Shown piece after piece: positions 55,170-55,719 of a DNA stretch of 64,000 bases. The notes under the pieces are model-generated. The model was not told where the DNA came from, did no database searches, and saw only the letters and a list, made by a program, of their open reading frames with translations. Position 1 is the stretch's first letter, and every line of letters starts with the position of its first letter. A program made the position numbers and the translations under genes. The stretch is from an uncultured Prevotellaceae bacterium (GTDB lineage: Bacteria > Bacteroidota > Bacteroidia > Bacteroidales > Bacteroidaceae), in NCBI GenBank assembly GCA_902782305.1, contig CACZMV010000005.1:9008-73007 (forward strand). Direction: 5' to 3'.

Positions 55170-55719
55170 TAAATGAGAAATGAGGAATGAGAAATGAGAA
55201 ATGTAAATGAAAAATGAGAAATGATTCCTCCCGTTCTAAACAGGAAAATAAACCACTCGCATTACTGTTTTTTACAACTCTGTTCATTCTTCAAATTCTC
55301 CTTAGTCGTTTTTGTTATTATTGTTAATATACTGATGACTTCTTCACTGTCTTTTATAATGGATTCATATTCTTTGTCGCTCAAGGAACCATAGGAATAA
55401 AGTCGTTTTAACCAAAATCTGGTCTCATTAGCTTCTTTCAGAGCGATTGTCATCTTAGTGAGAAAATCCGCTTTCGTCTGGGCGTATTGACCTTCGGACA
55501 CGTTTGCTCCAACACTAGTCCCGCTTCGCACAATCTGTTTTAACATATCTTTGTCACCAGAACGCTTTTCGGAAAGATACTTATACATCTTTGTGATTCT
55601 GTCGGCAAACTTTTCAGATTTCTCAACAATGATATTATCTCGCGAATCGGTCATTTGACATTTTTCATTTAGGGCGCAGCCCGTCATTACTCATTTCTCA
55701 CTCCTCATTTCTCATTTGG
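55170..55719. mobile_element. Four-helix-bundle gene enclosed by inverted heptamer arms
   Basis: L arm 55170-55224 and R arm 55651-55718 are reverse complements at 50/55 positions, apart from a 13-nt hairpin insert. Confidence 0.6.
55262..55654 (-). CDS. Four helix bundle protein (TIGR02436 / 23S rRNA IVS protein-like)
   Basis: KSEKFADRI, KQIVRSGTSVGANVSEG, KADFLTKMTIALKEANETRFWL motifs; AT-rich relative to neighbours; start MTDSR at 55654. Confidence 0.93.
   Translation of the reverse strand: MTDSRDNIIVEKSEKFADRITKMYKYLSEKRSGDKDMLKQIVRSGTSVGANVSEGQYAQTKADFLTKMTIALKEANETRFWLKRLYSYGSLSDKEYESIIKDSEEVISILTIITKTTKENLKNEQSCKKQ

Follow-up and report, generated by a model that had tools for sequence, protein, structure and literature searches.

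The closest described systems are the intervening sequences (IVSs) of 23S rRNA that encode an S23p protein. In Coxiella burnetii, the S23p ORF is carried by a stem-loop that is closed by a 28-bp stem of terminal repeats. Its ATG is directly preceded by three GACAGAT heptamers in tandem together with a degenerate unit, strains differ in the number of units, and RNase III cleaves the IVS where the first repeat begins (PMC4990558). S23p-encoding 23S IVSs are also known from Leptospira and Brucella, and Xcc0516, a member of the same protein family, forms a homopentameric toroid (PMC4990558). The PF05635 family, for which the motif GxxRxxxSxxxNxxE was named (PMC3936711), has been described as uncharacterised and was noted inside cas operons. 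Avd, the accessory protein of diversity-generating retroelements (DGRs), has a homologous pentameric four-helix-bundle fold (PMC10053308).

Tandem heptamers have been described separately from this family. Three papers report an excess of such repeats without explaining it: GGGAATC heptamers with 70-75 convergent pairs in Xanthomonas and GGGGAYT in Nostoc (PMC4692102), TAACTGA heptamers in Beggiatoaceae, Cyanobacteria and five Bacteroidetes (PMC4679880), and heptanucleotide elements in Geobacter (PMC2700814). The passages searched in them contain no mention of the four-helix-bundle family, and literature pairing the family names with heptamer terms came down to the Coxiella paper. The published repeats resemble the arrays presented here in being tandem 7-nt units that are intergenic, often at starts or stops, often in convergent inverted pairs and lineage-specific in their unit. 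They differ in that the arrays studied here bracket a four-helix-bundle gene and follow its copy number in density.

Two further kinds of element are comparable. REPIN-RAYT systems consist of a gene flanked by inverted copies of a dispersed repeat, the repeat type follows the gene lineage, and the RAYT proteins are homologs of HUH/Y1 transposases. The gene presented here is likewise flanked by inverted copies of a genome-dispersed repeat, but its product is a small helical bundle lacking any HUH/Y1 match among the profiles searched. The Correia/NEMIS MITEs of Neisseria are short, gene-less inverted-repeat elements with defined terminal inverted repeats (TIRs) and target duplications; they are co-transcribed with their neighbours and their RNA hairpins are cut by RNase III. 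Our cassette differs from them by arms made of heptamer arrays, by the gene inside and by the lack of a visible duplication. With MITEs and TIR transposons in general it shares terminal inverted repeats and a multi-copy repeat family, but no target-site duplication was seen and the short copies are not internal-deletion derivatives.

Layout of the cassette between fadD and prfB

The window, i.e. the whole stretch of 64,000 nt analysed (contig C5:9008-73007), belongs to a source assembly of 2.94 Mb in 68 contigs with a completeness of 88%. On its minus strand, a TIGR02436/PF05635 four-helix-bundle gene (130 aa plus stop) is enclosed by inverted AAATGAG-heptamer arms, and the acyl-CoA ligase gene upstream and prfB downstream are encoded on the same strand. 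The features are as follows.

55722..57530, minus: upstream host gene, AMP-binding long-chain acyl-CoA ligase (fadD-like; profile match)
55718..55752, minus: 13-bp hairpin formed by the last fadD codons, the stop and 4 nt abutting the 5' arm (fold and covariation)
55162..55721, minus: inserted spacer from the fadD stop to the prfB ATG, 560 nt (2-3 nt in the closest relatives)
55651..55718, minus: 5' arm in gene sense (the R arm of the original prediction), AAATGAG-type heptamers with the start codon in the innermost unit
55262..55654, minus: four-helix-bundle gene (profile matches to TIGR02436 and PF05635)
55226..55248, minus: small 10-bp hairpin 3' of the stop codon of this gene and ahead of the 3' arm (pattern match only, weak terminator pattern)
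55170..55224, minus: 3' arm in gene sense (the L arm of the original prediction), CTCATTT-type heptamers in sense-strand reading, with its end 9 nt ahead of the prfB ATG
54040..55161, minus: downstream host gene, prfB (release factor 2; TIGR00020, 448 bits)
53033..53198, no strand assigned: gene-less AAATGAG-family hairpin with the same GC mini-hairpin as the cassette in one arm (repeat scan)

The original prediction, made from the sequence alone, had placed an AT-rich four-helix-bundle ORF between fadD and prfB, with its ATG as the innermost triplet of an arm. Both points hold: the ORF scores 87.8 bits on TIGR02436 (cut-off 24) and 83 bits on PF05635 (cut-off 33.8), the neighbours match their own profiles, and a check of the reading frame puts the in-frame ATG at 55652-55654, at the inner end of the 55651-55718 arm. 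An Rfam search of the cassette region gave only chance-level matches and no rRNA or other Rfam family; with the ligase gene and prfB as flanks, the cassette lies outside any 23S rRNA helix.

The arms had been described as exact mirrors with 50 of 55 matches plus a 13-nt insert, and pairing was found at 50 of 54 positions. Positions 55171-55203 pair with 55685-55717 (33 nt, 94%) and 55204-55224 with 55651-55671 (21 nt, 90%); the two blocks are parted by the insert in the 5' arm, which carries an 11-nt GC mini-hairpin (55672-55682). In the sense RNA (55160-55730), the arms form a single long terminal stem according to the MFE and centroid structures alike, predicted to comprise 28 + 4 + 13 + 5 pairs, with the mini-hairpin as a side branch and the start codon paired. 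The fold energy is −150.5 kcal/mol, versus −119.9 ± 6.2 kcal/mol in shuffles (z = −4.9). Across the related cassettes (22 of 22), arm identity is 92.5% in register and 62% when slid by one unit, in a test that favours the chosen register by construction. Because of this in-register mirroring and the terminal stem at z = −4.9, the inversion of the arms is not due to chance. Arm mismatches show no excess of G·U on the sense strand over the antisense strand (39 versus 34, and 58 versus 54); thus, symmetry at the DNA level fits equally well as selection on the sense RNA.

On the antisense strand of the gene, the mini-hairpin at 55672-55682 and its copies at 53033-53198 and 62960-63126 have the sequence GCGNAGC, which seems to resemble the unusually stable d(GCGNAGC) DNA mini-hairpins. 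A cUUCGg-type loop stands in its place in locus L050, and similarly in other lineages.

We regard the cassette as an IVS-type element outside rRNA. With the S23p-bearing 23S IVSs it shares the protein family and an ORF held in the loop of a long terminal-inverted-repeat stem, and with that of Coxiella also the tandem heptamers that reach the start codon; such IVSs have long been proposed to be selfish or mobile, and we read the cassette likewise. It differs in its host site, a spacer between protein genes instead of a 23S rRNA helix, in arms of about 55 nt (28 in the Coxiella IVS) that belong to a genome-wide repeat family, and in a protein under strong purifying selection, whereas the Coxiella IVS ORF was judged to be decaying. 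Of the original prediction of an mRNA-embedded IVS analogue, the anatomy shared with the Coxiella IVS and the predicted terminal stem stand, whereas the arms give no sense-strand G·U bias in its favour.

The cassette would be co-transcribed with fadD and prfB, and pairing of its arms would give a duplex of about 50 bp. The cassette start codon would thereby be masked, and the stop of fadD would again lie close to the start of prfB. Such a duplex may serve as an RNase III substrate, as in rRNA IVSs, so that the insert would be tolerated inside an essential operon; binding of the cassette protein to its own arms is one possibility. The 13-bp hairpin at the 3' end of fadD was present in 10 of the 18 cassette-bearing loci (−14 to −20 kcal/mol) versus none of 11 empty sites. 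Its covariation score was 0.222 versus 0.169 in shuffles (0 of 500 reached 0.222) and 0.05-0.08 in slid controls, with covarying pairs GAG/CTC, GAT/ATC and GAC/GTC, and GGAAC/GTTCC versus GGCAC/GTGCC. Were the arms cut, this hairpin might shield the newly formed end of the upstream mRNA.

The gene also occurs, with 0-2 differences, in contigs assembled from the RNA libraries of three studies, for which DNA carry-over is possible; one of these contigs reaches from the 3' arm across the 5' arm as far as fadD. Arm-arm joints in such contigs, considered as products of excision, were traced to other hairpin copies of the repeat family. A 589-nt skip in contig X15 was likewise dismissed as RNA excision: 28 other letters stand between its two sides, and it represents a relative with an empty site.

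In the protein, the motif R-x3-S-x3-N-x2-E is present as R-S-G-T-S-V-G-A-N-V-S-E in the cassette protein and relatives. The ORFs of the relatives are all intact (123-131 aa) and keep the R-x3-S-x3-N-x2-E motif, and pairwise dN/dS values range from 0.03 to 0.23 (median 0.12), with 0.03-0.04 versus loci L036 and L037 at dS 0.6-1.0. The cassette protein is functional and under strong purifying selection. Profile searches matched only the four-helix-bundle family, and the protein has no catalytic motif. The closest solved structure is PDB 2rld from B. thetaiotaomicron (E = 2.5e-29), an entry with five chains; together with the homopentamer of Xcc0516, these chains indirectly suggest a pentameric cassette protein. 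The match to 2rld and the homologous fold of Avd (PMC10053308) agree with the structural kinship to Avd put forward in the original prediction. Unlike in DGRs, neither a reverse transcriptase (RT) nor a template/variable repeat pair was found beside the cassette gene, and the only RT of the genome lies on contig C9 (PF00078, 70 bits; G000:C9:16412-17575, L235:2913-4076), with genes for a holin and a GH108 lysin immediately downstream. This RT is probably a prophage DGR-like module unlinked to the four-helix-bundle genes. We also considered whether the arrays arose by telomerase-like or RT-based synthesis and found no support, the only RT being in this prophage-like region next to the holin and lysin genes.

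Gain, loss and exchange at the junction

Empty sites, to be expected in relatives under the original prediction of a mobile element, were found: 22 genomes of the same genus have fadD next to prfB, with the gene missing from between them. The two closest empty sites read TAA-TT-ATG (G015) and TAG-ATT-ATG (G024), with spacers of 2-3 nt, and the filled sites read TAG-TTCC-[arm...arm]-AAATAAGAT-ATG. The whole 560-nt spacer is thus an insertion. Comparison of filled and empty fadD-prfB sites revealed no repeated flank indicative of a target-site duplication.

The homolog loci retrieved with the cassette protein are rumen Prevotella MAGs, many with the cassette at the fadD-prfB junction. In a flank tree (a quick IQ-TREE run on 600 flank residues), a clade of 18 rows (aLRT 96) consists of 16 filled sites with the two empty ones, G015 and G024, nested inside, and further filled lineages (L052, L053/54) are placed among empty sites. 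In L051 the junction is empty and the cassette lies downstream of prfB instead; in L061 it also lies downstream of prfB (fadD was not recovered in this locus). The flanks of L056 are 95-96% identical to those of L043 and L040, whereas the proteins are only 60-63% identical and the arms of L056 are of the AATTAG instead of the AATGAG type. Similarly, L050 has the flanks closest to those of the source genome, yet its protein is just 78% identical. At this junction, the cassette is gained, lost or swapped out of step with the phylogeny of its flanks. A second cassette of the source genome, on contig C8, is missing from its own site in 56 of 56 matching genus genomes, with related copies elsewhere in two. 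Of the 28 loci found with the cassette protein, 25 are armed (bracket scores 14.5-56.5 versus about 8 ± 1 in shuffles).

Exchange at a fixed site may reflect no more than homologous recombination between conserved flanks, with no need for dedicated mobility. First insertions and copies at other sites need a route besides flank recombination. The junction has been colonised more than once. In other species it holds gene-less arrays, namely AATGTTG four times (L012/G020), AATTCAT three times with GC hairpins (L018/G001), and TAGTAAT followed by GTCAACT (L020/G017).

Heptamer arrays and the gene family

The source genome holds 505 period-7 arrays, versus 58, 44, 35 and 17 arrays of periods 5, 6, 8 and 9. 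The families are AAATGAG (77 arrays), AAAAGTG (45), AATAGTG (42), AAAGTTC (29), AATTATG (27), AAATTGT (27), AAATAGT (22) and AAACATT (11). The arrays abut stop codons on their downstream side or start codons on their upstream side, or are placed between divergent promoters. A genome scan with four AAATGAG units gave 78 arrays and at least 15 inverted pairs, most of which have loops of 40-90 nt without a gene, and some of the short copies carry the same GC mini-hairpin as the cassette. At least 14 such short gene-less hairpins were counted in the genome, among them those at 53033-53198, 9889-10074 and 62960-63126 of the window. The loops of 14 short hairpins contain no gene remnants beyond shuffles, with one marginal score of 12.5 against a control maximum of 11.5; an origin of these hairpins as MITEs by deletion was dropped, as their loops match the cassette no better than shuffles do. 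Further period-7 arrays of the window lie at 53805-53846, 57642-57683 and 58767-58808. An M28-like lipoprotein gene (about 1 kb, ordinary composition) is bracketed by inverted AAATGAT/AAATGAG arrays (147-195 of the window and G000:C5:8138-8186), with its probable start codon inside the upstream array.

Of five TIGR02436 genes in the source genome, four touch heptamer arrays. Besides the cassette gene, these are a paralog on C8 and two on C14. The C8 paralog is enclosed by a 43-nt inverted repeat built from AAGTGAA/AAATGAA units, of which it occupies the loop, and likewise sits between two genes on the same strand. The first C14 paralog (L001, G000:C14:52700-53430) lies between direct, same-orientation CTGAATC arrays; a 14-nt GC hairpin of invariant sequence interrupts them at intervals of a few units and, being two units long, keeps the 7-nt phase. 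The second has CATCAGC/CATCCAT arrays downstream. The fifth paralog, on C17, has no heptamer array alongside. The heptamer families with the most arrays, AAATGAG (77) and AAAAGTG (45), are those found in the arms of the two armed cassettes.

The association was followed across 60 loci from 60 Bacteroidota genomes, each represented by its best-scoring family member, at a bracket score threshold of 15. Arrays bracketed 31 of 57 family genes; among neighbouring genes the count was 17 of 234, and among shifted windows 1 of 232. The resulting 54% refers to the best scorers of a single phylum, taken at a permissive threshold, and is not to be generalised to the whole family. The units vary by lineage (AGTAATC, AGTGACG, CAGTTTT, TCAGCTT, ACGCGAG and others) and the period is nearly always 7. 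In Phycisphaerales (Planctomycetota), 10 of 13 homologs (L200-L212) score at least 14.5, with units such as AAAGCTC, CAAATGG, CGAAAAG and AGTTCAA. Most of them stand at one conserved junction, ahead of a gene starting MPI..TMPRLSDTM, with arm units that vary by genome. The arm-gene-arm design recurs around this gene family, in Bacteroidota, Planctomycetota and the 23S IVS of Coxiella.

Array density was compared in about 100 kb sampled from each of 18 Bacteroidota genomes without phylogenetic correction. Nine genomes lacking the gene had 0, 0, 0, 1, 2, 0, 1, 0 and 0 period-7 arrays (mean 0.44 per ~100 kb), and nine with 9-18 gene copies had 5, 7, 4, 2, 7, 1, 2, 5 and 2 (mean 3.9; one-sided Mann-Whitney p = 0.0005, kinship ignored). 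Arrays of other periods were not enriched in the gene-rich genomes (3.2 versus 5.1 in the gene-free ones).

Pattern counts in five Prevotella genomes were compared with the arm type of their own cassettes.

G192, cassette arm AATTAG: AATTAG 24, AATGAG 1
G195, cassette arm AATGAG: AATTAG 13, AATGAG 55
G194, cassette arm AATGAG: AATTAG 4, AATGAG 55
G191, cassette arm AATTAG: AATTAG 73, AATGAG 94
G193, cassette arm hybrid: AATTAG 2, AATGAG 36

The arm type is usually that of the dominant family of the genome, with G191 and G193 as exceptions. Three expectations of the original prediction bear on these data. Enrichment of arms next to TIGR02436 genes was confirmed in the source genome (4 of 5 paralogs), in the Bacteroidota sample (31 of 57 versus 17 of 234) and in Planctomycetota (10 of 13). 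Arms were found genome-wide, but they are not specific to the gene, as the about 77 arrays are mostly gene-less. Covariation of the heptamer with the protein clade stood in that arm type broadly tracks cassette or protein type. A one-protein-one-repeat relation is not established because G191 and G193 deviate, five abundant families of the source genome are without a partner gene and the loops of the short hairpins are free of gene remnants.

Readings of the cassette

We favour, as reasonably probable, the reading of the locus as an IVS-type selfish cassette, in which a functional four-helix-bundle (S23p/Avd-like) gene between mirrored heptamer arrays has been inserted into the fadD-prfB mRNA spacer. 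Against this stands the source-genome paralog that lies between direct, not inverted, arrays. In addition, no enzyme, no movement and no target-site duplication were observed. The least probable account, which we consider highly improbable, is that a vertically inherited small gene came to lie by chance between two common intergenic microsatellites. Heptamer arrays are very common near starts and stops in the source genome, and the unrelated M28-like lipoprotein gene is likewise bracketed by inverted AAATGAG arrays; such a placement is contradicted, however, by the empty sites with 2-3-nt spacers in the closest relatives, by bracketing about 7-fold above that of neighbouring genes and far higher above that of shifted windows, by the like layout in Planctomycetota and in the rRNA IVS, and by arms mirrored in register. 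A DNA-level TIR element (MITE- or foldback-like) would carry the gene as a passenger, moved in trans by a host recombinase or transposase or by recombination between arrays, with the RNA stem being incidental. The long terminal inverted repeats of tandem short units, the many gene-less copies in the genome, the presence/absence polymorphism with copies at new sites and the symmetric mismatch spectrum of the arms are all in line with it. Nevertheless, we regard such an element as unlikely. A target-site duplication is absent, and one enzyme acting in trans is hard to reconcile with arm sequences that vary among paralogs and lineages. The short copies have loops that bear no relation to the cassette, the passenger always belongs to one family and is under strong purifying selection, and the equivalent design inside rRNA is processed as RNA (PMC4990558).

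Alternatively, the protein might act in trans on the heptamer arrays of the whole genome by binding, stabilising or spreading them, in a REPIN-RAYT-like manner with the gene between inverted copies of its own repeat. This possibility, which we rate as rather unlikely, gains from the period-7 density of 3.9 with 9-18 gene copies versus 0.44 without the gene and no enrichment of other periods, from the 505 period-7 arrays of the source genome versus 17-58 of other periods, and from the two top families AAATGAG (77) and AAAAGTG (45) in the armed cassettes. Moreover, the sister species G192 and G195, with flanks 95% identical, have TTAG/TGAG counts of 24/1 versus 13/55, each matching its own cassette type, and Xanthomonas, one of the taxa known for an excess of heptamer SSRs, has the family member Xcc0516 (PMC4692102, PMC4990558). 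It is weakened by the lack of a catalytic motif or known enzymatic activity in the protein, by the families AATAGTG, AAAGTTC, AATTATG, AAATTGT/AAATAGT and AAACATT, which have no partner gene in the 88%-complete assembly, by the similar numbers of both families in G191 and the hybrid arms of G193, by a density comparison limited to 18 genomes with kinship ignored, and by short hairpins free of gene remnants. A broader proposal, tentative and somewhat doubtful, is that of one widespread system in which 7-nt-periodic arrays are recognised by a pentameric four-helix-bundle protein that has a part in their formation, maintenance or use. If it were true, the rRNA IVSs, the operon cassettes and the genome-wide heptamer excess in Xanthomonas, Nostoc, Beggiatoaceae and Bacteroidota would be three faces of one element.

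The locus ties together three puzzles that had for decades been described apart and not explained, the S23p/PF05635 family, the 23S rRNA IVSs and the over-representation of heptamers. It does so through an IVS-like unit in an essential operon, turnover between close species, arms of the dominant repeat family and the trend of array density with gene copy number in 18 genomes. The host group has cultivable members, so the model is open to concrete experiment.

Some arms in related loci are composite. In L043 (1440-1500), an AAATTAG array lies outside and a AAATGAAAG array inside, and in L053 and L054 the 3' arm downstream of the gene is present as a tandem duplicate about 50 nt apart. The composite arms of these three loci look like nested or successive insertions.
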